Assembly (NCBI GenBank): GCA_039714975.1
Contig: JBDLIH010000007.1
Location: forward strand, 4,199 to 68,198
DNA from: Pseudomonadota bacterium
Lineage (GTDB): Bacteria > Pseudomonadota > Gammaproteobacteria > UBA9214
Length of the DNA: 64,000 nucleotides
Direction of reading: 5' to 3'
Below the pieces are notes generated by a model that saw nothing but the letters and a program-made list of their open reading frames with translations, did not search any database and had not been told where the DNA came from. The position numbers and the translations under genes were made by a program. Positions 1 to 63,638 of the stretch are shown here, one piece after another; within the stretch, counting starts at the first letter, position 1, and each line of letters opens with the position of its first letter.

Positions 1-382
1 CGTTTTTTACCGGAGCACGGGGGGGTTTATGTTTCATTCCTGACTCGAAACCACCGCCCTGTATAACAAAGTCAGGTATCACACGATGGAAAATGGTGTT
101 GTCGTAGAAACCATCGTCGACATAGGTCAGAAAATTTGCCACTGTTTTTGGTGCTTTTTCCGGATAGAGTTCCAGGGTAAAAGATCCCATGCTGGTCTCG
201 AAGACCACTTCTGTCCGTGACTCCTCAGACTGTGGATTTTCTGCATTGACGCCGGCAACATAGATTCCCAGCACAGTGAGTATGAATAAAATAAAGTATG
301 AGAGTTGTTTGATTTTCATGGATTATGATGGTTGTTTGATTATTTTATGGATAAGGAACAACAGATATATTCGTAGCCAGAT

Positions 383-1732
383 CTACCTGGCTGCCACCTT
401 AACAGACACCGTTTGCTTCTTGCCCGACTTGAAGGTCAGCGTCATATCGACCTCCTGCCCTGTACTCAGGTGTTCCTTCGGCCGCATCATCATCAAATGC
501 TTGCCCCCGGGCTCGAACTGGATTTGACCGTTCGCAGTAATCACCATGTCTGTCACTTCACGCATTTCCATAAAGCCATCGACCCTGGCCATTTCATGTA
601 CTTCGATAGTTTCATAAGCCTCGCTCTCCACCTTGACCAGTGTGATTTCTTCGGAGCCCGCGTTTACCAGCGTCATGTACCCGGCATTCACCGTCGCGTC
701 GGTATGCGCTTCACGAACCCATGCGTTCATGATTGCGACCACATCACCATCCAGTTTGGCCGGGCTGGTTGTGGACACTGCTTTCACGGGCGTCACAATA
801 CTATCCAGCGGTTCATCCCCCGCAATCCTTTGCGTTTCATCAGCCATGTAGTCGAGCAAGGACAATGCCTCTTCCTTGTTTAAGCGCATATTGGGCATGG
901 CCAGATTGTTGTACTGTTTGTAGAGTGCCATTGCGACAGGGTCTTTCTTCTTCAACATCTGGTCCGGCGCCTTCAGCCAGTCGAGTAGCCATTGCGGTTC
1001 ACGTTTGCGGGTAACACCCAGCAGGTCCGGCCCCAGCGCATCCGCCAGTTCATTACCGGTAATTGAATGGCATGAGGCACAGCGTGTACGAAATATTTGT
1101 TCACCCCGCGGAATACTGCGCAACTCGGGGGCATTCGCATAGTCATCACCACGCGGCGGCGCCTTCCAGCCTGACAGCCAGTTACCAACCTGATCAGCAA
1201 GCACATAGGGATTCTCGAAGGGCGAACGTTTCATCCACCGGCCGGTGGTCTGATTACCAATGATCATGTTGACATTGTGATTATTCGATCCTTCCTCCTG
1301 GATCTCCTCGATGTACAGGCCGAGCTTCCTGCGAATTTGAATAATGTCCGATTTTTTACCGGTCAAAAATGTCCAGTTGGCCTTGAATCTTTTGCGGTAC
1401 TCCTTGAAGACTTCCGGGGTGTCGTTTTCAGGATCGACTGAGATAGAGTAAAAGAAAACATCCTCGCCCACCCGGTCACCGAGGATATTTTGCACCCGGA
1501 CGAGTTGTGCCGTCTCCAGCGGACAGGTGTCCGGACAATGGGTATAGATGAAGTTGATCACGACGATCTTGTCCTTAATCAGATCATCAAAGAAATGCAC
1601 CGTTTTCCCTTCGTGGGTGACCAGCGGAACATTGGGGAAATAGTTCGCACCCCAGGGTGATGCTGAAGTGAAACCGGGGATACTACTCGTTATCAACAGG
1701 GCGAAGGCCGCCACCCAGGAATACCTATGCAT
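383..1732 (-). CDS. Three-domain copper-trafficking fusion: Sco1/SenC (thioredoxin fold) + class I cytochrome c + PCu(A)C (DUF461) copper chaperone; secreted
   Basis: N-terminal signal peptide. Sco motifs HCPDTCP (CxxxC) and DPENDTPEV. Heme c site CASCH. C-terminal PCuAC-type H/M copper motif (HEMARVDGFMEM..., GGKHLMMMRP). Confidence 0.75.
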   Translation of the reverse strand: MHRYSWVAAFALLITSSIPGFTSASPWGANYFPNVPLVTHEGKTVHFFDDLIKDKIVVINFIYTHCPDTCPLETAQLVRVQNILGDRVGEDVFFYSISVDPENDTPEVFKEYRKRFKANWTFLTGKKSDIIQIRRKLGLYIEEIQEEGSNNHNVNMIIGNQTTGRWMKRSPFENPYVLADQVGNWLSGWKAPPRGDDYANAPELRSIPRGEQIFRTRCASCHSITGNELADALGPDLLGVTRKREPQWLLDWLKAPDQMLKKKDPVAMALYKQYNNLAMPNMRLNKEEALSLLDYMADETQRIAGDEPLDSIVTPVKAVSTTSPAKLDGDVVAIMNAWVREAHTDATVNAGYMTLVNAGSEEITLVKVESEAYETIEVHEMARVDGFMEMREVTDMVITANGQIQFEPGGKHLMMMRPKEHLSTGQEVDMTLTFKSGKKQTVSVKVAAR

Positions 1733-1880: not shown

Positions 1881-4800
1881 CTATTTACCCGCATTCCGTG
1901 CACGGTGGATAGCAGCATCCAGCGTGACCGGTGTCGGGCAGTTCACCACGTGTGGCGCGTTCGCGCTGGTGAAGTCGTAGTCATCGACTCGAACACCCGT
2001 GTTATCACCCTCTGCAACACGCGGCGGTGCCGGCCACTCAAGGATCTCCACCCTGCCGTCTTTACGCAGTTGCCTGAGCTCCTTCAACCCTTTAACTACC
2101 CGGTCGTGAGGCTCCAGCCAGTGTGCAAAGCCGATGTGCCACATCGGGCTGTAATCGTCTTCCGGCATGAAGTAGGACGGAAGACCGACCTGACTGCCGA
2201 ACGGACCACCGCCACCGTTGATACCACACCCTTCAGAGCCGCAGTTATACTCACCGCCATCTGCAGTCGCAGGTTGCGGCATTGGCGGGAAGGTTGGATC
2301 GACGTGACGTTTACCCGGCATCCACTGCACCAGCGGTACGGCCGTAGTACCGAGGAACTCATGCTTCGGCACATATGGCACACCCATGGCCCGTGCCGGA
2401 GGGAACGGGAAGGTGTCGACCACGATGTAGTATGGCAGGTAATCACCATGCTCACTAGCCCACGACTTGTGCAGCTTCAGCGTCACGTACGGAGGATTCG
2501 CATCGGTGTCCATTTCGACCACATGGCCGGAATTGTTGTAACGACCCCATGCAGTACCGTTGTAGGCACAGGTGGTGTTCGGCGGAGAATCAGGGAAGCT
2601 GTTACAGGTTCTGTCTGTCCTGTTCTGCTCCCAGTCTTCGTCACCCCATTTCATGAAGATTATGTTGAACACCACATCCTTGCCATCGATGTTCACACGA
2701 CGCAGCGGTGAGTAGGTGTTGGTGTCGCTGACATCAGGGATGTTAGCGTCGTTCAGACACGGTTCACCATTAACATCGGGATCACCTACGCGACAGGCCG
2801 GATTTGCCCAGACCGGGTTCGGCAGATCATCGTAGAAGGTCCACTCCAGCTTGTTGCCCTTGCGTTTCACACTGGCTTCAGCCGTAGCTGCCGGATTGAC
2901 ACCTGTCAGTCCACCGCCCCAGGCAATACCCAGCTCTTCCGAGAGTTCTTCATCACTGACATCGTGCATAATGAAGTAAACGTCTCTCTCATTGCCGTTG
3001 GCATCGACATGGGTGCCCTTCTCCAATTCGAAGGTTATCCCACCACGCTCGTTGTTGTCGTTCGGATCGAGCGCATCACCGATGGGTTCATCGCGGATGT
3101 TGTCGAAATGGCTGATCGTCACGCCATTCTTGATCCAGACTGACAGCGGATCCAGCTCAGGACCGAACTGACCGACATCGTCACCCTCCCTGAAGGTCGG
3201 CAGCGCAACAGAGTCGACATAGCCTACGCCATCCCAGGTCGGGAGTGGTGTCGGCATCAGCTTGACCTGTCCCGGATGCTCGATATCCCAACGCAGTAAC
3301 ATTGCGTGGTCTTCGTGCTGGGTGTTGTGGCAGTGCTCCATGTAGGTGCCTGCAAATTCCCTGAAGCGCAGTGCGATCTCAACCAGGTCGCCACTGTCGG
3401 GTTGCGGTCCCAGACGGTATACGTCCTTACGCGCCCACTGCTCATAATCAGGTGGCGCTACACCATTGCGGCGCAGGATAATACCTTCCTCGAAGTGAAT
3501 ATGAATCGGATGGCTCCAGGTGCCACTGTTGATCAGTCGCCAGACCTCCAGACCACCCGAGTTCTTGCTCGGCGCTGCTGATATACGGCGTGGATCCATG
3601 CCAAAGCCTTTACCACCATCGGTTTCGATCACCCAGGGTTTCTCGTCCGTGGGTTGTCTTTCAAATTCGAAAGAGCGATGCAGGGCGTTGGCCAGTTCCG
3701 CTTCGGTAGGCCTGTTCAGCGGAATCATCTTCTTGCCGCCGGCCACATACTCGGATGGATCCATACTGAGATCCTCGCCGTCGTATTCCGCCACGCGGAA
3801 TTCCAGGAACTTACCGACGACCGGGTCACCATTCACCCAGCAGTCACCGACAATGCCGTCTTCGTCACAGTCACCATGCTCAGCTGCGTAAACGCCACTG
3901 ACCACATCGGCCAACGGAATCGCTGCATCAGCTGTCACGCCATCCTTTTGCTGCATCAGGTTGACCATATAGAGCCTGTCGCCAGCATTAAACTGACTGA
4001 AATCTACAATGATGTCGTAACGTTCCGCGATACCCTGGGTGGGCAGCTCGCCGTTCTCGAAATAGACGCTGTGCTCCATGATGTTGCCGTCGTTGGCAAC
4101 CATGTAGAACGGTACCGGGGTACCTGTCTCGTCCACCAGTGCCAGCTTGAAGAAACGTGACACTGAACCGTTCAGGATACGGAAACGGTACTGGCGTGCA
4201 CGCACCTCCATGTAAGGCTTGTACAGCCAGTTGACGGTCATCACGTCACCAGCGAAGCCCATGAGATTGAAGGGGTTGAACCACAGCTGACCTTCATCGT
4301 CCCAGGCCTTTTCGGCAACCAGCAGGTTGACGTCGTAATCGCGGTTACCCCAGTCCAATTGTTCACCACTGGGGAAACGCAGGTTGACGCCATCATCGAT
4401 GGCTTCATTACCACGGTCAATTGCACTGTAGTAGTTCATCATGGCGGCATTGCCCTTGTAGACATTCTGCGCCGTGAAATCGAGCATATGATCATGGAAC
4501 CAGTGAGTACTCATGGTCTCACGCCAGTCACCCGGGACTTGATTGATGCCACCGGCACCATCCGGTGATCCAGCTCGAGGATCGCTGGCATCGGTGTTAA
4601 TGGTATCGCTGCCAGCCAGCGTCATCGGCCAGCGATAGTCATAGAACTGACCCGGGAAGAAGAAGCTGTTGGCATAGCCATCACTCTCGGCCGGGTTGTG
4701 TCCATTATGCTCGTGGGTAGAGATGGTGTGCACACCAAAGCCACGGTTCGCCGCCACATCGATGGGCAATGCATTGTAGTGACGGAACAGTACCGTCTCG

Positions 4801-30030: not shown

Positions 30031-30995
30031 TATTTAATGAGTGCCGAGCCCCAGGTAAAACCACCACCAAAGGCTTCCAGCAGCAGGGTTTCACCACGTT
30101 TGATGCGACCATCGCGTACCGCAACATCCAGCGCCAGCGGCACCGATGCAGCTGAGGTGTTACCGTGTTCATCCACCGTTACCACCACGTTATCCATGGA
30201 CATCTTCAGCTTGCGGGCAGTCGCCTGGATAATACGGATATTGGCCTGGTGTGGAATCAGCCAGTCAACGTCGGACTTCTCCATTTGATTGGCTGCCAGG
30301 GTTTCATCGACGATGCGGCCCAGGGTATTGACTGCCATCTTGAAGACTTCATTACCCTGCATTTGTACATAGGCCTGCCCGGCTTGCACCTTGTCATAAC
30401 CACTCGATATACCGGCAGGGACAGTCAGCAGATGTTCGTAACTGCCGTCAGCGTGCAAGTGAGTGGAAAGAATACCGGGCTCATCACTGGCCTCAAGGAC
30501 CACGGCACCTGCACCATCACCGAACAGGATACCGGTACTGCGATCATTCCAGTCAACAATACGTGACAGGGTCTCGGCACCCACAACCAGTGCACATTTG
30601 GCGGAGCCGGTTTTAATAAATTTGTCAGCGATCCCGAGAGCATAGACGAACCCCGTGCATACGGCCTGCACATCAAACGCAGCCGTGCCATGAATATCCA
30701 GCCGCTGCTGTAACAGGCAGGCCGTACTTGGAAATACGCGGTCAGGCGTCGTCGTCGCCAGTACAATCAGATCAATCTGCCGGGGAGTACGTCCGGCGGT
30801 CTCCATTGCCCGGGTTGCCGCGATTTCCGCGAGATCGCATGAGGTTTCATCACCGGCGGCGATATGTCGCTTGTAGATACCGGTGCGTTCCCTTATCCAC
30901 TCATCGGTCGTATCCATGATCTTTTCAAGATCATGGTTGGTCAGTACTTTTTCCGGCAAGTAACTGCCGGTACCGGTTATCCGCGAGTATTTCAT
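30027..30995 (-). CDS. fabH: 3-oxoacyl-ACP synthase III
   Basis: KAS III family, with active-site Cys in [11 protein letters not shown]. Confidence 0.9.
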
Positions 30996-36655: not shown

Positions 36656-39124
36656 ATGAAAAGAATGTTAATCAATACCACGCAGCCCGAAGAGCTGCGT
36701 GTGGCCATGGTCGATGGCCAGAAGCTCTACGATCTTGATATCGAGGTACCCTCACGCGGTCAGAAAAAGTCCAACGTATATAAAGGTAAAATCACACGCA
36801 TCGAGCCCAGCCTCGAAGCGGCCTTCATTGACTACGGTGGCAATCGTCATGGCTTCCTGCCATTAAAGGAAATCGCGCGCAGCTATTTCAGCGAATCCGC
36901 CAAACAGGGCGGCGGCCGCCTCAGTATCAAGGATGCCCTCACCGAAGGCCAGGAACTGGTCGTACAGGTAGAGAAAGAAGAACGCGGCAACAAGGGTGCC
37001 GCCCTCACCACCTTTATCAGCCTTGCCGGACGTTACCTGGTTCTGATGCCCAACAATCCGCGTGCCGGCGGGGTCTCCCGGCGGATACAGGGCGAAGACC
37101 GCAACCTTGTACGCGATGCCATGAGCAGCATGAACATACCCGACGGTATGGGCATGATTGTCCGCACAGCCGGCATTGGCCGCAGCAGTGAAGAATTACA
37201 GTGGGACCTGGATTATCTGACGCACCTGTGGAGCGTCATCAAGGAGGCCTCGGATGAACGCCCCGCTCCGTTCCTGGTTTACCAGGAAAGTAATGTCATA
37301 ATCCGGGCACTGCGTGACTACCTGCGCCCGGATGTCTCGGAAATCCTGATTGACAGCCAGGAGGTGTTTGAAACAGCACGTGAGTTCATGGAGCGCGTCA
37401 TGCCCCACAACCTGGGGAAACTGAAGCTCTATCAGGACACCATTCCGCTGTTCAACCGCTTCCAGATTGAATCACAAATCGAGTCTGCCTTTCAGCGGGA
37501 AGTCACACTGCCTTCCGGTGGTGCCATCGTCATTGACCACACCGAGGCAATGATTTCTATCGACATCAACTCTGCACGGGCAACCAAGGGCAGCGATATT
37601 GAAGAAACCGCGCTGAATACCAACCTGGAAGCCGCTGATGAAATTGCCCGGCAACTGCGCATTCGTGACCTGGGCGGGCTGGTCGTCATTGACTTCATTG
37701 ACATGCAGCCGGCCCGCAACCAGCGTGAAGTTGAAAACCGCCTGCGTGATGCACTCAAGATGGACCGCGCACGCGTCCAGATCGGCCGCATATCCCGCTT
37801 CGGTCTGCTGGAAATGTCACGTCAGCGTCTGCGACCTTCCCTGGGCGAATCCAGTCAGATTGTCTGTCCGCGCTGCATCGGTCAGGGCACCATCCGTGGT
37901 GTCGAATCCCTGTCATTATCGGTGCTGAGAATCATTGAGGAAGAAGTCATGAAGGACAATACCCTGCGGGTTGTCGCTCATGTCCCGGTCGATGTCGGCA
38001 CCTACCTGCTGAACGAGAAGCGCGAATTGCTTGTGGGCCTTGAGGCGCGCCACAAGATTGCCGTCATGCTGATCCCGTCCCCGGCACTGGAAACCCCTAA
38101 TTACGATGTGCAGCGTATACGTAAGGACGAATCAGCCACCGCACAATCCACCCCGAGTTACCACATGGCGAAAGCACCCGCCGAACCGGAGCTACCGATC
38201 GCAACATCCATGGAAACAGTTAGCGCCGAAGTACCGGCAGTCAAGTCTGTCAAACCGACCGCGCCCGCTCCTGCACCATCACCGGCACCTGCACGCGATA
38301 AAAAGGCTGCCAAGGCCTCAAAACCCGGCCTGTTTAAACGCCTGTTTGCCAGCCTCTTCGGTTCCGCCGAGGAAGCGCCAAAACCTGCGCCCGGCAAAAC
38401 AGGGCAACAGCGCAGCAGCCAGCAAGATCGGAGGCGCGGAGGCAACCGGAGCAGACAGCAGCCACAGGGTAACCGTCGCAGGCCGCAGCCTCAGGACAGC
38501 CGCCGCAAGCCGCAGCCTCAGGGCAGCCGCCGCAAGCCACAGCCTCAGGGCAACCACCCGTCATCAGGACAAAACGCCAGCCAGCGACAAGCGGCCGACA
38601 ACCGTAAACAGCCGCGCCCGGCGCAAAAGCCGGAGGCCGAAAAGCAGGCTGCATCAACGCAGGCATCCTCGACCACGCAAGCCGAGCAACCGACACCCTC
38701 AGGTGACACTACAAGCCCGCAACAACGGCGGGGATCACGACGTGGCCGCCGTGGTGGCAGGCGGCGTTCATCCAGTCAGAACAGGAATGCCAGCGACCAA
38801 AAGGCAGCAGCAACTGAAAACACAACGACTGGTAGTACAAATACCGAGAGTTCGGGCCAATCCCGGCCAGCTGCTGACAGGAATCAGCCACGGGACAGCA
38901 GCAGTACTCCACCACAAGACAGTCAGAACAAGGCCAGTGTTCCGCAGCAAACTGCAGTCAGTACAGCAACGGATTCCAGGCCAAAGGTACCCGCAGCACC
39001 GTCGACACCCGATGAAAACAAGGCCGCGCCCAAGGCACCCACAGCACTATCGACAACAGATGGAAACAAGGCATCGCCTGCGGCAGATACTGCGCCCAAA
39101 CAGGAAAAGATCGCCTCGGAATAA
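36656..39124 (+). CDS. rne: Ribonuclease E
   Basis: [31 protein letters not shown]-terminal catalytic domain. Arg/Pro-rich repetitive C-terminal scaffold. Confidence 0.95.
38474..38563 (+). repeat. Three tandem roughly 30-bp repeats encoding RRxPQPQ(D/G)S within the rne C-terminal scaffold
   Basis: ccgcaggccgcagcctcagg / ccgcaagccgcagcctcagg / ccgcaagccacagcctcagg. In-frame Arg-rich RNA-binding-like segments. Confidence 0.7.
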
Positions 39125-39132
39125 GATTACGG

Positions 39133-39624
39133 CTACAGTCGGTGCTGCCGGCGAATTTCTGCCAGCAGCCCGGCTGATGCCTCTTCAATCAAGTCCAGTA
39201 CACGCTCAAACCCGGTAGTGCCCCCATAGTAAGGGTCCGGTACTTCATTCGTCTCCTGATCAGCTGCAAACTCCATAAACAGGCGCAGCTTCGCTTCGTG
39301 TTCTGGCGGGCAGCTGGAAGCAAGGTCCCCGAAATTGCTGCTGTCCATGGCAATGACATAATCAAATTCATGGAAATCATCGGGGCCGACACGACGCGCC
39401 TGTTGTGAACTTAAATCAACGCCGCGCTTCAATGCAGCAGCAGACGCGCGCTCATCCGGGCTCTCACCTATATGGTAGGCATGTGTCCCCGCAGAATCTA
39501 TCTGTATGAGGTCCGCAAGGTCATTGTCCGCAACCAACCGTTCGAAAACACCTTGGGCTGTGGGTGATCGGCAGATATTGCCCATGCATACAAATAACAC
39601 CGAAATCGTTGAATTGTTTATCAT
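39133..39624 (-). CDS. ptpA: Low-molecular-weight protein tyrosine phosphatase
   Basis: CMGNICRSP P-loop and DPYY motif. Confidence 0.9.
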   Translation of the reverse strand: MINNSTISVLFVCMGNICRSPTAQGVFERLVADNDLADLIQIDSAGTHAYHIGESPDERASAAALKRGVDLSSQQARRVGPDDFHEFDYVIAMDSSNFGDLASSCPPEHEAKLRLFMEFAADQETNEVPDPYYGGTTGFERVLDLIEEASAGLLAEIRRQHRL

Positions 39625-40016
39625 AACGGTTTGATTTTAATACATTGCAAGGTTCTGTCAGACTGGCTATAGTTTGCCCTGATTGCTCGCACAAGTGTAT
39701 CTATATGTGTAGCTGACAGGCAAACTGACTGCAGCAAAAGTTCGCACTTTCAAGGCAACAGACAAAGACCAGTGGCTAAATGATGGCGATGGTTAAGCCA
39801 GTTTCCACAGATTACCTTTGATGACAGAAGTGGGCGCGACTTACAGCGCCGTTACCGGATACAGATCACCCGCAAATATACACTGTGAGATTGGCCGCAT
39901 ACCCCTCGCTTAACCGGCTGGACCTGGCTCTGCTGTGCGCTAATCTTCTGACAGTGCGCGGCTGTAAGTATTTAATTTACTTTTGTTTACTTTGAAATCC
40001 CGCATAGAAGTGCATA

Positions 40017-40208
40017 ATGAACAACATGAAAACCCTTGTCATAGCTATGGTCTTTATGGCGGTGATTTACCTGGCCGGGATAATTTCCAATTCAAATTCT
40101 GCCATGCAACTGGCCGCAGTCATGTTATGTGGATTAGTCATTGTCTGGTATGCCTTGAGAGCTATTTGCTGCGCATGCAAGACCAGAGACAAATCTACTT
40201 CCCGGTAA
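40017..40208 (+). CDS. Putative small two-TM membrane protein (63 aa)
   Basis: Two hydrophobic helices, Cys-rich tail. Weak RBS. Confidence 0.3.
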   Translation: MNNMKTLVIAMVFMAVIYLAGIISNSNSAMQLAAVMLCGLVIVWYALRAICCACKTRDKSTSR

Positions 40209-40494
40209 TCAGCCACAGGCCTCCTTTGACAGCCTGCCACTCCCCGTCCTGGTGACAGGACTTTCTTTGTCCGTCTGTACCTCAGGACAATAGGCAGACC
40301 GGGAATTATGCCATATCGTATTAACCAGTGGCGCAGCTAATAACTCCAAATTCGCCACTAATACGTCCCGGGTCAATCCGTCTCGGGGCGTATTTTTCCA
40401 TGCATAAACAAAAACACTGACCAACGAATGAACGCAGGCCACCTTGAGGAAAGATAAATACTATCTATATGACCAGCTCTCTGGCCCTTTCCGG

Positions 40495-40590
40495 TCATTC
40501 GTCAAAAAGATAAATAATAACTGCCATAAGCATTACCATTAAGATTATGGCAACATCCTCCCATCGATACGATGGCCTGTGATTGCTCAT
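40495..40590 (-). CDS. Unannotated small hydrophobic peptide (31 aa) MSNHRPSYRWEDVAIILMVMLMAVIIYLFDE
   Basis: ATG with an AGGAAG RBS, single TM helix, downstream of the orphan receiver on the same strand. Confidence 0.3.
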   Translation of the reverse strand: MSNHRPSYRWEDVAIILMVMLMAVIIYLFDE

Positions 40591-40611
40591 ATGTCACTTC
40601 CTGTGCCGGTG

Positions 40612-40710
40612 TTAGAATCCGGCCTTATCAATGATGAGAATAGCTGGCGGGATTAAGGCCGCCAAGAGTATCAGTGCACCGCATATAGAGGCATAGATTG
40701 TTCGTATCAT
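40612..40710 (-). CDS. Unannotated small hydrophobic peptide (32 aa) MIRTIYASICGALILLAALIPPAILIIDKAGF
   Basis: ATG with a GGGGG RBS, single TM helix, tandem with the preceding peptide. Confidence 0.3.
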   Translation of the reverse strand: MIRTIYASICGALILLAALIPPAILIIDKAGF

Positions 40711-40794
40711 AGAAGCCCCCGATCTGTAGACAGAAGAAAATCTTTTATGCAGGCTTTTGACAGTATTGCCAGCCTGACCTGGCACCGCCCTGAA

Positions 40795-41178
40795 TCAGTG
40801 GCGTGCTCCCCTGGCCATTGCCCCCTCGACCAATGCCAGTATGTCCTCCAAACAGGAGTCGTCTCCCTTTGAAATAAAGAAGTCCGCCCCGTCACGAAAG
40901 GCTTGCTGACGATACTCCGGCAGATTGTTGGCAGAGAGAATAACGACCACAATATCACCGTACACCCGCTTTATCTCTTTTGTTACGTCCAGTCCGTTTT
41001 CTCCAGGCAACTGAATGTCTATGAAGATAATATTCGGACGCAGGTATTCCACTTTATTCAGTGCTTCCACCCCGTCGCCCACTTCCTCGACGCCAATCAA
41101 CGGGAAGTACGAAAGCAATACGTCCGAGAGTGCTTGTCTGAAGCTGACATTATCCTCAACAAGCAGGGTATTGAACAT
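40795..41178 (-). CDS. Orphan single-domain response regulator (CheY-like receiver)
   Basis: Start refined to MFNTLLVEDN (GGAGG RBS). Conserved receiver Asp/Lys pattern (IFIDIQLPGENG, ...ILSANN..., K in FFISKG). Confidence 0.75.
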   Translation of the reverse strand: MFNTLLVEDNVSFRQALSDVLLSYFPLIGVEEVGDGVEALNKVEYLRPNIIFIDIQLPGENGLDVTKEIKRVYGDIVVVILSANNLPEYRQQAFRDGADFFISKGDDSCLEDILALVEGAMARGARH

Positions 41179-41581
41179 TGATGTATCCTCCGCGGAGCCT
41201 GGCCCGTGTTTTTTTTTCATTTGTTCACATAATTTCCTAATGAAATTATTGCCGGTTTTCCGGCAGGTAAGCACCCCATATTTTTCCATGTACCTGCGTC
41301 CTTGCGATTGCCGGTACCCCCGATACCGTCGCGGTGAATGTTGAGATGTTTCCTTGCCATTGAAAAAAGACCTGCATTCATCGCTCATCGTAGCCCTGGC
41401 AGCATCATAAATAGTCAAGTGCATATCCTGTGCCATTCTGCTCAAGGCGGGGAAAGTCCTGCAGTTTGAAGCGGTAACGGGATTTGAGCCGAGTGCTAAC
41501 ATGATCGGGACCGTATATTCTGTCGCCGTTGCCCGACGGTTAATCCGCAGCGTTAGCTATCTAGCTGATTGGAACAGAAAT

Positions 41582-41607
41582 CTTGTGTCGCCTTATAGCG
41601 ACACAAG
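41582..41607. repeat. Perfect 10-bp inverted repeat CTTGTGTCGC-cttata-GCGACACAAG in a 700-bp noncoding region
   Basis: Read directly from the sequence. Strong hairpin, or a dimeric-protein operator. Confidence 0.5.
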
Positions 41608-41874
41608 TCAGTCGGTCTGAGCGAGGATCCACAGAACCCGGGGCTGGTCGACTTTCTTGGCACCCGATGCGATACCTGTCAACGATCTGAACTATCGGGA
41701 GAGGGTGCAGCAGTGCCATCCTTACGGGGTAGCTTTACTTTTATGTTTGTTTATCACCCGAGAGTAGCGCCAGAAGTGTATCCAGCAAGAAGCTTCCTCC
41801 CTCTGCTGTTATTTTTATTGTCTTTATTTGCCCATGCAAGCAAAAATAACATTGGCCATAAGGACCCCTGCTTG

Positions 41875-42633
41875 CTAGCGACTGTTTGTTAACAACTCAT
41901 CAACCCGCACCAGGTCTTCCCGGGTGTCGACACCGTGGCCGGGTATTTCACTGGCGATACCCACATGGATCTTCATCCCGTGCCACAGCACCCGCAGCTG
42001 TTCGAGTTTCTCAATTGACTCCAGTGGTGATGGCTCCATTTGCATATAGTGCTTTAGAAAACCGGCGCGGTAGGCATACAGGCCAATGTGGCGTAATGCA
42101 GTGGTGGTAGTATCCACCCTTGGACTATCGCGATGACAGGGTATCGATGCGCGGCTGAAATACAGTGCATAGCCCTGCCTGTCCAGGACAACCTTGACGA
42201 CATGCGGGTCAGCGGCCTCATCAGTGGACTGAATCGGATATGCGAGGGTCGCTACCGGGGCGGCGGTATGGTTTGCGAGATCATCGGCGATTTGCCTGAT
42301 GAGTACAACCGGAATTAACGGTTCATCGCCCTGCACGTTAACAACAATGTCGTCGTCATCCCAGCCATGTATCTCGACAACCTCTGCAAGGCGCTCGGTC
42401 CCTGACGAGTGCCCGGGCGATGTCATGCACACTGTCGCATCAAAGCCCTGTGCAGCGTCTGCAATGCGTCGATCATCGGTCGCGATTATGACCTCGTTCG
42501 CACCGCTCTGCAGTGACCGTTCATGTACATACTGCAGCATGGGGCGACCGGCAAGCTCAAGCAGTGGTTTACCCGGTAGCCGTGTTGATGCATAACGTGC
42601 CGGGATGACGACTTTAAACTCTGTGATGCCCAT
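41875..42633 (-). CDS. kdsB: 3-deoxy-manno-octulosonate cytidylyltransferase
   Basis: [17 protein letters not shown]-terminal motif. lpxK-ycaR-kdsB synteny. Confidence 0.9.
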
Positions 42634-56626: not shown

Positions 56627-56670
56627 TAGAAACATAAAACAAGGGCTGAACGGGTCAGCCCTTGTTCGTT

Positions 56671-60026: not shown

Positions 60027-62093
60027 TCAGACAATGCCCGGGTCAGGATCACTGATCGTAATCAGGCTGGTGAGTGCATAACGCAATTTTTCCTGATCTA
60101 CAGGTTTCAGAAGAAATCGGGACACACCTAACCGGTCACATTTTTCATATATCTCGGTCGTTGCATCACCGGTCACGACAAAAATCGGTATGGCCACATC
60201 CTCCGACGTCCGTGCCCGGTACAATTCAATCACGTCAAAACCGGACATACCCGGCATCTGGATGTCAAGCACCATCAAGTTATATACACCACTGCGCAAT
60301 TTTTCCAGTGCCATTGGGCCTGATGAGGCGAAATCCGACTCGACACCGATATCATCCAGCATGGCTTTCATCACATGACGATTCAGCCTGCAGTCGTCCG
60401 TCACCAGCACATTGAGCCTTTTTCCACTCTCCAAAAAAATCGCAAGATCATCTCTCAGATTATCTCGTGTGTGTGTATCCAGCATCCGGGAAGCATAAGA
60501 AAGCACATTCTCAATCTGCTCACAGGTCTCTATTACCAGGTGAAATCCTGCACGAAGATAGTCATCGTGTTTACTTGCATCCTCACAAAGTACAACCAGG
60601 CAGGAACCTGCCTTATGACCCTGGCGGATTACATCATCAATCTCGGCATCAGTAACCGCACACGAATCCACGATTACGCAGCATTCACCCAAATCAATAT
60701 CAGAGCGATCCAGTTCGCCCCAGTTATCGAATGCCCTCATCCCGCCAAATACGGCAGGTACTGTGTCTTGCGGTAGCCTCGTGCCAACTACACAGCAACC
60801 GGGCAGCGTACCCTTTGATCTACTTCCTGTTTGCTGATCACCAGACACCTCTACCAAAGGTATATGAAACCAGAATCGACTCCCCTTATTTTCTTCGCTC
60901 TCAAGGCCAATCTGTCCACCCATCAAGTCAACAAGTCGTTTCGCAATCGATGTTCCCAGCCCGGTTCCGCCATAGCGTCGTTGCACAGAGTCATCCGCCT
61001 GCCGAAAACGCTCAAAGATACGAGACTGCATGGCTGACGGTACTCCAACACCGGTATCGATCACCTCAAACAGGATTTGCCTGTTGCCATCTTCACTCTG
61101 AAAACTGCTGATCCTGACCTTAATCTCACCAACGGACGTAAATTTGACTGCATTCCCCACCAGATTCACCAGAATCTGTTGCAAATGGTCAACATCACCA
61201 CGCACCCGGGGCGGCAGGGTGATATCCATATCAGTGATGTACCTGACGCCACCCTGCTCAGCATGCATCGAGAACATGCCTTCGACCGAGCGAATCAGCC
61301 CATATAAATTGAACGTTTCCTCTTCTATGCGTACATGGCCTGACTCAATCCTGGATAAATCCAGTACACCCTCAACGAGCGTTGTAAGACTTGCGGAGGC
61401 ATCTCTTATACTTCTCGTTATCTGTGCCCGCCTGACATCATCCATTTCCCGGTCCAGCATCTGACTAAACCCCGCCACAGCATTCAGCGGTGTCCTGATC
61501 TCATGACTGACGTTTGCCAGAAATCTGGTTTTTTCCTGATTGGCTTTCTCTGCTTTGTCTTTTTCCAATTGCAATCTCTTCAACATTATCGACACGTACA
61601 GCGGAATAATAGAGAGCAAAATGATACCCATAACTGTAAACAGCACCTCTTCACTCCAGAATGTTGTTGTATTAACAACAACGATAAAGCCAGCTAACGA
61701 CAATATCGCACAAATAATAAGCTCCTTATATCCATATCTAAAACCATTTCCAACCGTGAGCCATAGATATACAGCAAAGAATGGGACACCATAGTCACCT
61801 AACAAAAAGAGCAGAGCGCACACTAGTGCAACATCAAATACCATGTAGACAGTATGTCTCCACTGCATACCATTCGGGTATAAATATGTTTGAAAAATAA
61901 TTATTAGCGAGAAAACTGTATAAAAGACACCCAATGTAATAACTGGATGATGGAAACCACCATCTAATCTATCTGTTAGCGCCAGAAACGCCGCATATAA
62001 AACACCGCTGACAACCAGCAATAACCGCATACCAGCCTGCTCCAGTTCGACATTCCTGCTTGCCTCTTGCAACAACCCCTTTCTAGCTTCCAT
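60027..62093 (-). CDS. Hybrid sensor histidine kinase / response regulator with an N-terminal polytopic membrane sensor domain
   Basis: About six N-terminal TM helices. H-box ANVSHEIRTPLNAV. HATPase G-boxes. C-terminal REC (VLVTDDCRLNRHVMKAML...LMVLDIQMPGMSG). Confidence 0.85.
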   Translation of the reverse strand: MEARKGLLQEASRNVELEQAGMRLLLVVSGVLYAAFLALTDRLDGGFHHPVITLGVFYTVFSLIIIFQTYLYPNGMQWRHTVYMVFDVALVCALLFLLGDYGVPFFAVYLWLTVGNGFRYGYKELIICAILSLAGFIVVVNTTTFWSEEVLFTVMGIILLSIIPLYVSIMLKRLQLEKDKAEKANQEKTRFLANVSHEIRTPLNAVAGFSQMLDREMDDVRRAQITRSIRDASASLTTLVEGVLDLSRIESGHVRIEEETFNLYGLIRSVEGMFSMHAEQGGVRYITDMDITLPPRVRGDVDHLQQILVNLVGNAVKFTSVGEIKVRISSFQSEDGNRQILFEVIDTGVGVPSAMQSRIFERFRQADDSVQRRYGGTGLGTSIAKRLVDLMGGQIGLESEENKGSRFWFHIPLVEVSGDQQTGSRSKGTLPGCCVVGTRLPQDTVPAVFGGMRAFDNWGELDRSDIDLGECCVIVDSCAVTDAEIDDVIRQGHKAGSCLVVLCEDASKHDDYLRAGFHLVIETCEQIENVLSYASRMLDTHTRDNLRDDLAIFLESGKRLNVLVTDDCRLNRHVMKAMLDDIGVESDFASSGPMALEKLRSGVYNLMVLDIQMPGMSGFDVIELYRARTSEDVAIPIFVVTGDATTEIYEKCDRLGVSRFLLKPVDQEKLRYALTSLITISDPDPGIV

Positions 62094-62151: not shown

Positions 62152-63552
62152 TCATGATGCCATCCGAAATACGTCCAGTCTATCAGGGTCTTGTCGATCG
62201 ACAATGAATTTCGCGAAGATACTGTCCTGAACGTTATTCAAGAGAAATTCAGGCAACGAGTGGCGTAGCGCGGTAGCCACAACCAACTCAGAGGGAGCAA
62301 TACCAGGGCGAATGGTTCGCAACCAGGAACCGAAAGAGGCCCACACCAGCTTGGGAACGTTGGCAGACAGATACTGAAGCAGTCCCTGGGAGACAACGCC
62401 AGCGTGAATAAATACATGGTAGGCGTTGATCTTGCGCTTGACGGCATCGCGGTAGGCTGAGGATTCCCGATGAAGGTATTGGTTACCATTTCTCCGATGT
62501 AGCGGTTTCATCTCCTTCATCCAGAAATGGTATGAGAAGGAGCCGACGACGCGTACCGCTTGCTTAAAGCCGTGTTCGATTTTGAATCGCAGACCGTAGA
62601 GACGAATAATGTCTATGGCACTCAGGGACGTGTCAGTAGCCATCAGCAGGCAGCGTCCCCGGGTCGGGTGAATGACCACCACGAAGCGCACGATCCGTCC
62701 AACGGGCCGCCAAAGCAGGTCACAGACCCGATACTGGAGGGTGACATTTTTATCGCCATAGACAGGGCTGGCGGCTTGCTCCATCGCCTGTCCATCATTG
62801 AACAGTGACTTGAGCGCGATTTTCTTGCCATAGACTCTGGGCCGGCCTCTTTTCTTGACGCCTTGGTGTTTATATGGGGTGTAGGCCACCGCATTGGATC
62901 TCACCCGCGTTACCAAATGATTATCCTGGTCCAGCAGACCAGTGATGATTTTCTGACTGGCATAATATGCGTCCGCCACAAAATAGAACGGTTGCTGGAT
63001 ATCGACAATCTTGAGCAAGGCAAGCATTTCATCGAGCAAGGTGCGTTTGTCGCGATTGGACCACACCAGGCCTTCGTGAATGCGAGTGGCCAGCGGCACG
63101 GCAAACACACTCTCGGCGGCCTGAACCAGCACCGAGACCGCCTGCAAGGAGTGCCCCATGATGTATTCCGGCTTCGTATTCGAGTCCGATTCCTGGTGAA
63201 GCAGTTTGACGGCAGGCATTTTCTTGCCGCTCTTTGGTACCTTGATGCCATCACCGACCAATACCAGTCGGCCATTGACGCGCAGCGGGTCAGGAAATAG
63301 TCGCAGCACCACTTGCGCCCACGGCGCGGACATCCTATCAAGCAGCACACCGGTGCTGTGAAAGTTATCGAGCAGGTTGTCATAGAACCGCTCATGTAAT
63401 CCCAGTGCGTGCACAATGCTGGTCACACCGAGCAAATCCGTGCGCACCGTCAAGCCTGCCACGCAGGTCGCAAACCACAGAAAGGTTCGCAGACGCGTAC
63501 AGCCCGGGCGCAATAGCCAGATTGCATCCCACCAGCAGATCCACAATTGCAT
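62152..63552 (-). mobile_element. DDE transposase (IS4/IS701-like) with a candidate IS span of about 62115-63587
   Basis: Transposase-like protein of about 466 aa. Imperfect terminal inverted repeat (aagccaataata vs atgccaacaata, 10 of 12). Inserted about 22 bp upstream of the hybrid kinase start codon. Confidence 0.55.
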
Positions 63553-63638
63553 GTTGTGTCGGCTCCTGTGTCTTCTATTGTTGGCATTGAAGAATAGCAT
63601 ATGTATGCTAAGCTTTTAGCAGGCAAAGGCCATTACAA

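Follow-up and report, generated by a model that had tools for sequence, protein, structure and literature searches.

A lineage-specific insertion in ptpA carries a stand-alone receiver, a putative sigma-54-type promoter and unannotated small-protein genes

In a gammaproteobacterium of the lineage UBA9214 (GenBank assembly GCA_039714975.1, contig JBDLIH010000007.1), the junction between kdsB and ptpA is occupied by a block of 2.23 kb. The block was inserted into the first ptpA codons, duplicating 23 bp of the target, and lies in a 64,000-nucleotide stretch of the contig, which is called the window here. It contains two independent units, each conserved elsewhere in differing surroundings. Unit 1 (~41650-40611, minus strand) has a fixed architecture of two dyads, a sigma-54-type promoter, a Gly-rich upstream open reading frame (ORF), a stand-alone receiver, and pep32, a membrane peptide of 32 amino acids (aa). 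Unit 2 is built around a 63-aa ORF (orf63). Comparison with other loci establishes this architecture and its conservation and shows that the receiver, pep32, and orf63 are coding genes (Table 1).

A first-pass annotation had placed the receiver, two small hydrophobic peptides, and a 63-aa ORF (40017-40208, plus strand) at the positions found here. The insertion, the orphan receiver, and one of the micro-proteins that it described are upheld, whereas its small RNA (sRNA) and toxin readings are not.

Table 1. Features of the inserted block and its flanks (window coordinates)
Feature	Position	Strand	Remarks
ptpA	39133-39624	-	low-molecular-weight phosphotyrosine phosphatase, PF01451, E 4e-42
kdsB	41875-42633	-	TIGR00466, E 6e-95
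Lineage-specific insertion into ptpA 5' end, 2,228 bp	39601-41828	.	absent from closest relatives
Ancestral ptpA start remnant, 11 codons + stop	41825-41860	-	ancestral ribosome-binding region in front, beside kdsB
23-bp direct repeat, left copy, duplicated ptpA target GTTATTTTTGCTTGCATGGGCAA	41829-41851	-	repeat search and relatives' alignment
23-bp direct repeat, right copy GTGTTATTTGTATGCATGGGCAA, now codons 9-16 of functional ptpA	39578-39600	-	
Dyad site 1, perfect 10-bp inverted repeat CTTGTGTCGC-N6-GCGACACAAG	41582-41607	.	candidate regulator/enhancer-binding site, ~185 bp upstream of predicted transcription start
Dyad site 2, core GTCGGGCAACGGCGAC (41522-41537)	41517-41542	.	65 bp from site 1, same half-sites, ~120 bp upstream of predicted start
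Sigma-54-type promoter TGGCACAGGATATGCA	41420-41435	-	GG-N10-GC, -24/-12 spacing
Conserved Gly-rich upstream ORF, 54 aa, MNAGLFSMARKHLNIHRDGIGGTGNRKDAGTW...	41217-41381	-	core GGIGGTGNRK
Stand-alone receiver (single-domain response regulator), 127 aa	40795-41178	-	PF00072
Small conserved hairpin GCCAGGTCAGGCTGGC just past receiver stop	40768-40783	-	one G-C to A-T compensatory change in L042, L036
pep32, conserved 32-aa single-pass membrane peptide MIRTIYASICGALILLAALIPPAILIIDKAGF	40612-40710	-	predicted from sequence
pep31, 31-aa hydrophobic ORF, doubtful, genome-specific	40495-40590	-	
Terminator-like hairpin GTCCTGGTGACAGGAC then TTTCTTTG	40246-40261	+	38 nt after orf63 stop
orf63 unit: conserved upstream DNA (39961-40016) and 63-aa two-transmembrane Cys-rich protein (40017-40208)	39961-40213	+	
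Sigma-70-like promoter CTGACA-16-TAAAAT within insert	39634-39661	-	10/12 matches in promoter scan

An insertion within the first codons of ptpA

The junction was compared with 24 loci fetched around relatives of kdsB. In eight of these (L001-L006, L018, L020), kdsB and ptpA are adjacent, with ~20-60 bp between the kdsB stop and the ptpA start and ~20-30 bp in the closest relatives, which bears out the proposal that the segment is an insertion. The annotation had taken ptpA-murB-kdsB as the reference arrangement; murB, however, lies at the junction in no relative examined. In the closest of these loci, L002-L004, and with small differences in L001, L005, and L006, the junction reads TAG CAAGCAGGAGTCGTA ATG GTC AAT GTG CTT TTT GTC TGC ATG GGC AAT ATC. 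After the kdsB stop, the window reads TAG CAAGCAGGGGTCCTT ATG GCC AAT GTT ATT TTT GCT TGC ATG GGC AAA TAA (41860-41825, minus strand) and is divergent beyond. These codons are a remnant of the ancestral ptpA start. They align to the relatives' TAGCAAGCAGGAGTCGTA ATGGTCAATGTGCTTTTTGTCTGCATGGGCAAT..., with divergence beginning past GGGCAA. Present-day ptpA opens with eight new codons (MINNSTIS), after which GTG TTA TTT GTA TGC ATG GGC AAT resumes. Because the remnant and the resumed ptpA sequence fix both junctions, the insert spans 39601-41828 rather than 39625-41874, the limits first proposed.

The two copies of the direct repeat that flank the insert, read from the sequence, are identical at 18 of 23 positions. 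Target direct repeats at both ends, here of the ptpA 5' end, are a mark of mobile elements. The insert holds no transposase or integrase gene and has no terminal inverted repeats, the only long-range inverted pair near its ends being one of 12 nt. No second copy was found within the window. GC content is 0.477 in the insert and 0.532 in the window as a whole. A plasmid or phage origin was considered and dropped, since the insert DNA matched neither plasmids nor phages. In composition, the insert is a mosaic of two conserved small-gene units and ~0.9 kb without detectable relatives (41651-41828, 40214-40610, 39601-39960).

Other relatives have an occupied junction as well, with lineage-specific genes that differ between them. 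In L007, L009, L010, L012, L014, L015, and L023, these genes encode a 166-aa protein together with an ankyrin-repeat protein, a regulator of the CRP family, or a di-haem cytochrome c peroxidase together with a YtkA-like protein. The comparison suggests that this junction is a recurrent site of lineage-specific gene gain.

As a side effect, the insertion would have uncoupled ptpA from kdsB, stripped ptpA of its ribosome-binding site, and placed its eight new codons behind the sigma-70-like site within the insert. This site stops 10 nt short of the new ptpA ATG (39624), which has no Shine-Dalgarno sequence. Expression of ptpA may therefore be leaderless.

Coding content of the two units

The receiver matches PF00072 over residues 5-105 (E 1.5e-19, 70.6 bits, cutoff 30.2), its sole Pfam match, and no NCBIfam model scored above its cutoff. 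Defence and phage protein libraries returned generic receiver matches only. At 127 aa, the protein lacks an output domain and belongs to the single-domain class. Of the 491 homologues that a protein search recovered, the top 120 have 72-100% identity to it, are nearly all 124-147 aa long, and carry PF00072 only. The acidic pocket is intact, with E8, D9, the phospho-acceptor D54 (in FIDIQLPG), S82, and K104. Across 24 homologues, E8 and K104 are invariant, D54 is kept in at least 90%, and position 82 is Ser or Thr in all (24/24). The nearest solved structure is the receiver domain of EvgA (E 4e-12), and the protein is therefore a NarL-type receiver minus its DNA-binding domain. A 235-aa in-frame ORF (40795-41502) was rejected as a longer form of the gene, as homologues begin at the same MFNTL and 1-nt indels break the frame upstream.

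The insert contains no kinase gene, and the only kinase in the window, a hybrid histidine kinase with HisKA, HATPase_c, and receiver domains (60027-62093, minus strand), is 19 kb distant. The receiver is therefore a true orphan, as the first-pass annotation, which called it CheY-like, had stated. The kinase gene adjoins a DDE transposase gene (62152-63600, minus strand). On longer contigs, some close paralogues of the receiver are the first gene of an operon that continues with a PAS-HisKA hybrid kinase and an OmpR-type regulator. This operon is divergent from genes for a NarL-type regulator and a PAS-HisKA_3 kinase, and the same genomes hold further stand-alone receiver copies.

Among single-domain regulators, the protein resembles CheY, DivK, and Xanthomonas VemR in having only a PF00072 receiver, in which acidic pocket, phospho-acceptor Asp, and conserved Lys are intact, and no linked kinase is present here. 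VemR, a receiver-only regulator tied to sigma-54 regulation, is a precedent for the present case (PMC6637908). Unlike these proteins, the receiver is of the NarL/EvgA type by sequence rather than of the CheY type. It has a conserved ORF in front and a conserved membrane micro-protein behind. To our knowledge, an arrangement of upstream ORF, receiver, and membrane micro-protein has not been described for proteins of the CheY, DivK, or VemR type.

The two peptide ORFs downstream of the receiver are hydrophobic, as first described, and have GGGGG and AGGAAG as ribosome-binding sites 5-8 nt ahead of their starts. Hydrophobic stretches are strong in all three small ORFs (maximum KD17 2.65-3.11), including pep32 (2.65) and pep31 (3.11). 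A pep32 homologue follows the receiver directly on the same strand in seven distinct loci (L025-29, L034, L035, L036, L042), at 78-86% aa identity; it reads MMRTVFASICGALILVAALIPPAILIFDKAGF in L025 and MMQTIYASMCGALILIAALIPPVILIMDKIGF in L028. Pairwise differences at the three codon positions are 0.124/0.097/0.363. The ratio of nonsynonymous to synonymous differences (pN/pS) is 0.29 in this frame and ~1.4 in each of the other two; the receiver gives 0.32. Judged from these patterns, pep32 is a real, conserved, and unannotated gene on which purifying selection clearly acts. None of the small ORFs of the window occurs as a called protein among ~15 billion sequences, which agrees with their reported unannotated status, and only five called pep32 clusters exist in a collection of 5.8 billion. 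Searches of Pfam and NCBIfam at E values up to 1 gave no match to pep32, which does not belong to the MgrB, SafA, MzrA, or KdpF families.

The second peptide of the proposed tandem, pep31, has a good Shine-Dalgarno sequence and lies 21 nt from pep32. However, none of the 119 fetched loci holds a pep31 homologue, and homology to other modules stops at ~40605-40614, that is, before pep31. Conservation in related loci thus supports one member of the tandem and not the other, and it is doubtful that pep31 is a real gene. The receiver, pep32, and pep31 of the window lie in a common frame (40495-41178, minus strand), with a single TGA parting the receiver from the pep32 frame; this arrangement is not conserved in the homologous loci. 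Read-through of this TGA to give a membrane-anchored receiver-pep32 fusion was considered and discarded, as pep32 is in another frame in three of the seven loci and extra in-frame stops intervene in two more. Between the two genes, the small hairpin GCCAGGTCAGGCTGGC is followed by the conserved sequence GCATAAAAGATTYTCTTCT. This hairpin may act as an internal attenuator or belong to a pep32 promoter within the unit.

Small membrane peptides are known to control sensor kinases, as in the case of MgrB, a 47-aa peptide that feeds back on PhoQ (PMC2789325, PMC8404706). Like the peptides of the MgrB-PhoQ, SafA-PhoQ, and MzrA-EnvZ pairs, pep32 has fewer than 50 aa, is predicted to be single-pass, is encoded beside a two-component component, and evolves under purifying selection. 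Unlike them, it has no sequence similarity to the described families and is encoded next to a receiver instead of elsewhere in the regulon. An interaction of pep32 with a kinase would be proposed by analogy. The earlier suggestion that the small peptides regulate membrane complexes is still a reasonable one for pep32.

Several fetched loci carry variants of the module. In L039, L040, L041, and L044, the receiver is followed, in the place of pep32, by an alternative partner gene encoding a conserved soluble protein of 87-100 aa (MNLNDIQKTILKWVTKKH...) with no Pfam match. In L042, the module is flanked by two inverted paralogous genes (332-685, minus strand, and 2172-2444, plus strand; 117 and 90 aa, 50% identical), which occur in no other fetched locus. 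In L034, a second, incomplete copy directly follows pep32 (1398-1606). It takes in the 3' half of the upstream ORF, the spacer, and some 20 codons from the start of the receiver, and it hints at a tandem duplication of the module.

Unit 2 is encoded on the opposite strand. The 63-aa ORF reported there belongs to a real family, with ten relatives in an exhaustive search of 1.84 billion representatives (best E 6.9e-21, 73% identity). All are two-transmembrane proteins of ~61-113 aa, and W-Y-A-x-K-x-I-C-C-A-C-K is conserved past the second helix. DNA homology to L117, L118, and L119 is confined to 39961-40213, that is, the gene and 56 nt upstream, and none of the three is related to the receiver module. 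By these sequence comparisons, orf63 is a separate conserved Cys-rich gene family, convergent to unit 1 and with its own predicted terminator.

DNA upstream of the receiver

Conservation of unit 1 extends well beyond its genes. About 1 kb of DNA (40611 to ~41617-41647) is 74-81% identical in L025, L027, L028, L031, L034, L035, L036, and L042, in which the neighbouring genes differ, and the unit occurs with fixed spacing in at least nine unrelated metagenomic contexts. A conserved divergent partner gene upstream was considered and rejected, as the proteins found there in L025 (139 aa) and L028 (129 aa) are unrelated and have no Pfam match. The first-pass annotation described 700 bp of this region as free of ORFs and as a possible source of an sRNA. 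The stretch in fact holds the 54-aa upstream ORF, the sigma-54-type promoter, and two dyads.

The sigma-54-type element is the sole match to TGGCAC-N5-WTGCW in the window, where 0.3 would be expected by chance. It is found at -245 to -267 from the receiver ATG (~255 nt) in nine distinct loci, several of which read GGCACAGGTTTTGCA. The published sigma-54 consensus is mrNrYTGGCACG-N4-TTGCW, and the Geobacter form is TTGGCACGGTTTTTGCT (PMC2725144). L038 (~260-324) retains the element, and the whole leader with the upstream ORF has been deleted between two CAATG motifs, so that 54 nt separate the element from the receiver. Its retention at -54 despite the deletion argues that the element is the receiver's promoter.

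The dyads lie upstream of this element. GTCG-N7-GCGAC occurs at two places only in the window (41587-41602 and 41522-41537; 0.35 expected), and a pair of GTC-N10-GAC sites spaced by 60-70 bp occurs once. Dyad pairs spaced by 64-65 bp are present at the same offsets (-420, -355) in L025, L027, L031, L034, L036, L042, and L113. In positions and helical face, they fit activator sites for an enhancer-binding protein, which we infer them to be. The arrangement resembles classical sigma-54 promoters with tandem activator sites, such as glnAp2/NtrC and nifH/NifA, in the GG/GC at -24/-12 spacing, in the match to the consensus, and in having two dyads on the same helix face, 65 bp apart and ~120 and ~185 bp upstream. 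A conserved AATCAG-N4-ATA block that is similar to a site for integration host factor (IHF) adjoins dyad site 1. NifA binds TGT-N10-ACA, and NtrC binds TGCACC-N5-GGTGCA. The half-site here, GTC-N10-GAC (GTCGN-N6-GCGAC), differs from the activator sites known to us, and its activator is presumed.

An alternative is that the promoter is not of the sigma-54 type and that the dyads are operators for a conventional dimeric regulator, activating or repressing, such as one of the NarL type, acting on a sigma-70 promoter. It would account for the fact that neither the window nor the surroundings of the module elsewhere show an enhancer-binding protein or rpoN gene, and it is in keeping with the paralogous receivers divergent from NarL/GerE regulators and with a single pattern match against an expectation of 0.3 per window. 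However, GG-N10-GC is kept at a fixed distance in nine distinct loci and in L038 despite the loss of the leader, and several copies (GGCACAGGTTTTGCA) are near the published consensus (PMC2725144). The promoter scan found no sigma-70-like site between the dyads and the upstream ORF, and the paralogous receivers beside NarL-type regulators have neither the dyads nor the element. The sigma-70 alternative is considered quite unlikely.

Dyad site 1 is the perfect 10-bp inverted repeat that had been singled out as a strong hairpin. It is present as described and folds at -17.9 kcal/mol (z = -5.6). The window has three perfect repeats of this kind, against ~0.6 expected. A perfect 12-bp repeat, AACAAGGGCTGA-N5-TCAGCCCTTGTT, lies at 56638-56666 within the 44-nt gap between tRNA-Glu and tRNA-Ala genes, and a 10-bp repeat, CCATGATCTT-TTC-AAGATCATGG, at 30914-30936. 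In eight homologous loci, the sequence of site 1 is kept (CTTgnGTCACC..ATAGCGACAAAag), whereas pairing falls to 4-8 of 10 positions with no compensatory changes. Site 1 is therefore better explained as a protein-binding DNA site than as an RNA hairpin or terminator.

A Rho-independent terminator is a competing explanation of the repeat. It would serve either kdsB, which has the same orientation and lies 270 nt upstream, or a gene of the donor genome. A terminator scan of the minus strand found an 11-pair stem (6 G-C) followed by ATTTCTGTTC, a weak tail, and both the strong fold and the lack of another obvious kdsB terminator since the insertion agree with that role. What speaks against it, besides the loss of pairing in homologues that keep the GTCAC...GCGACA sequence, is the second site with the same half-sites 64-65 bp away in eight loci. 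In L025 and L028, moreover, the upstream neighbour is transcribed away, so that nothing reads into the repeat. A terminator instead of a protein site is thus judged very improbable, but the repeat may additionally stop read-through from kdsB in this genome, where the two roles could be combined. The 'hairpin' is most likely one of the two regulator-binding sites of the putative promoter and not part of an sRNA.

Between the promoter and the receiver, the upstream ORF begins ~29 nt past the predicted transcription start. A profile search found it ahead of the receiver in 14 distinct loci, and an isolated copy occurs in L032/L111. This copy (MNTGLLATVMKSPDIHCDGIVGTGNRKGAGAW..., 9610-9708 in L111/L112, equal to 7610-7708 in L032) has no receiver behind it and precedes a glucose-6-phosphate dehydrogenase gene by ~400 nt. 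The ATG is conserved, indels are of -6 and -3 nt, and in L040 the core is kept in frame through an internal ATG after a frameshift. Within the 10-codon core GGIGGTGNRK, differences by codon position are 0.12/0.146/0.339. The ORF has no family match in Pfam or NCBIfam, and only two clusters in the protein collection contain it. On these grounds it is probably translated, and its product is perhaps a regulatory leader peptide.

The leader (41408-41179) could instead be conserved as a cis-regulatory RNA, attenuator- or riboswitch-like, in which the upstream ORF does not encode a functional peptide. About 105 nt past the ORF core, before the receiver ribosome-binding site, are conserved without a reading frame and have 1-nt indels and variable stops. 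They include a small hairpin, TGCCGG-AAAA-CCGGCA (CCAG-ATAA-CTGG in relatives), with one compensatory change and then AUUAUUUCA. Over its full length, the ORF has a pN/pS of 0.755, against 0.88 in the other frames, and the leader is lost in L038 and stands alone in L111. The 2.5-fold excess of change at third positions in the core, the conserved ATG in all 14 loci, the indels in multiples of three, and the rescued frame in L040 point the other way. Rfam gave no match in the region, even at E = 5. RNAalifold returned a weak consensus for the leader, with mostly unvarying pairs and single compensatory changes in two short hairpins. A purely RNA-level leader is accordingly regarded as unlikely.

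These observations also bear on the proposal that the peptides act as type I toxins or damage membranes in a similar way, and that the stretch with the hairpin encodes their controlling sRNA. Like the toxins of hok/sok, ibs/sib, and tisB/istR, the peptides are short (31-32 aa) and strongly hydrophobic, with one predicted membrane helix and ribosome-binding sites in front. The repeat would fold stably as RNA, and the scan made a terminator-like call there on the minus strand. Nevertheless, no antisense or adjacent sRNA was detected. The candidate stretch is 470-1,000 nt from the peptides, does not overlap them, and is separated from them by the whole receiver gene. Rfam is empty, the pairing of the hairpin is not conserved, a second dyad lies 65 bp away, and the conserved promoter elements and upstream ORF account for the stretch. 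For the peptides, pep31 is not conserved, and pep32 lies behind a regulator gene, in the same orientation, in seven loci and evolves as an ordinary protein gene. Neither peptide matched toxin, defence, or phage families, and the Pfam and NCBIfam libraries were likewise without a match. With no positive evidence for a toxin, this proposal is exceedingly unlikely to be correct.

Elsewhere in the window, the C-terminal third of RNase E (38250-38900) is exceptionally rich in Pro, Gln, and Arg, with RRKPQPQG-type repeats, and its GC content reaches 0.67 and its AT skew 0.7.

Proposed function and significance

The best overall explanation of the block, favoured with moderate confidence, is that it would combine an inserted sigma-54-type operon of receiver and micro-protein with a separate unit 2. 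The structural re-annotation is very probably right; specific functional roles are put forward tentatively. In the proposed sequence of events, an enhancer-binding protein encoded elsewhere would bind the two dyads and switch on sigma-54 RNA polymerase ~120-185 bp downstream. Translation of the transcript would yield leader peptide, receiver, and pep32 and, in this genome, maybe also the non-conserved pep31. Because close paralogues head operons of receiver, hybrid kinase, and OmpR-type regulator, the receiver is probably phosphorylated by unlinked PAS histidine kinases. Once phosphorylated and without an output domain, it could serve as a diffusible partner or as a phosphate sink. The most likely role of pep32 would be to modulate a membrane partner, for example a sensor kinase, as MgrB does with PhoQ.

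Several points weigh against this account. A motif search of the window (GAFTGA, Walker A) found neither an enhancer-binding protein nor rpoN, and no sigma-54 activator domain is encoded by the genes called around L025, L028, L113, and L114. About two-thirds of the close receiver loci lack pep32 and have downstream of the receiver an 89-aa protein, a large kinase, or nothing, which means that the receiver does not need pep32. The hairpin and the possible internal promoter between the two genes leave their co-transcription unproven. The full-length coding signal of the upstream ORF is weak and its C-terminus is variable (30-60 aa), and selection on RNA or DNA could account for part of its conservation. 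The roles of phosphate sink and kinase modulator rest on analogy only.

A more far-reaching version would make leader peptide, receiver, and pep32 an undescribed signalling device. In it, pep32 would dock the receiver at a membrane kinase or gate phosphotransfer from it, the GGIGGTGNRK leader would couple receiver synthesis to a translational signal, and the whole would move between genomes as a sigma-54-controlled cassette. This version is speculative and more probably wrong than right by a wide measure. In kind, accessory two-component parts under a sigma-54 promoter are known; what is new is that they are built here from three unannotated small-protein families.

These families, the Gly-rich upstream ORF, pep32, and the Cys-rich two-transmembrane 63-aa protein, are conserved across many sediment and soil metagenomes and are almost never called. 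A stretch once read as free of ORFs and as a possible sRNA resolves into promoter elements and a missed small ORF. Should the inferred function prove wrong, an annotation fix for hundreds of loci would remain, with no wider reach. Two of the three families are tied, within a fixed promoter architecture, to orphan receivers of a very abundant family, and they offer a testable case of micro-protein wiring into two-component signalling outside the model enterobacteria.

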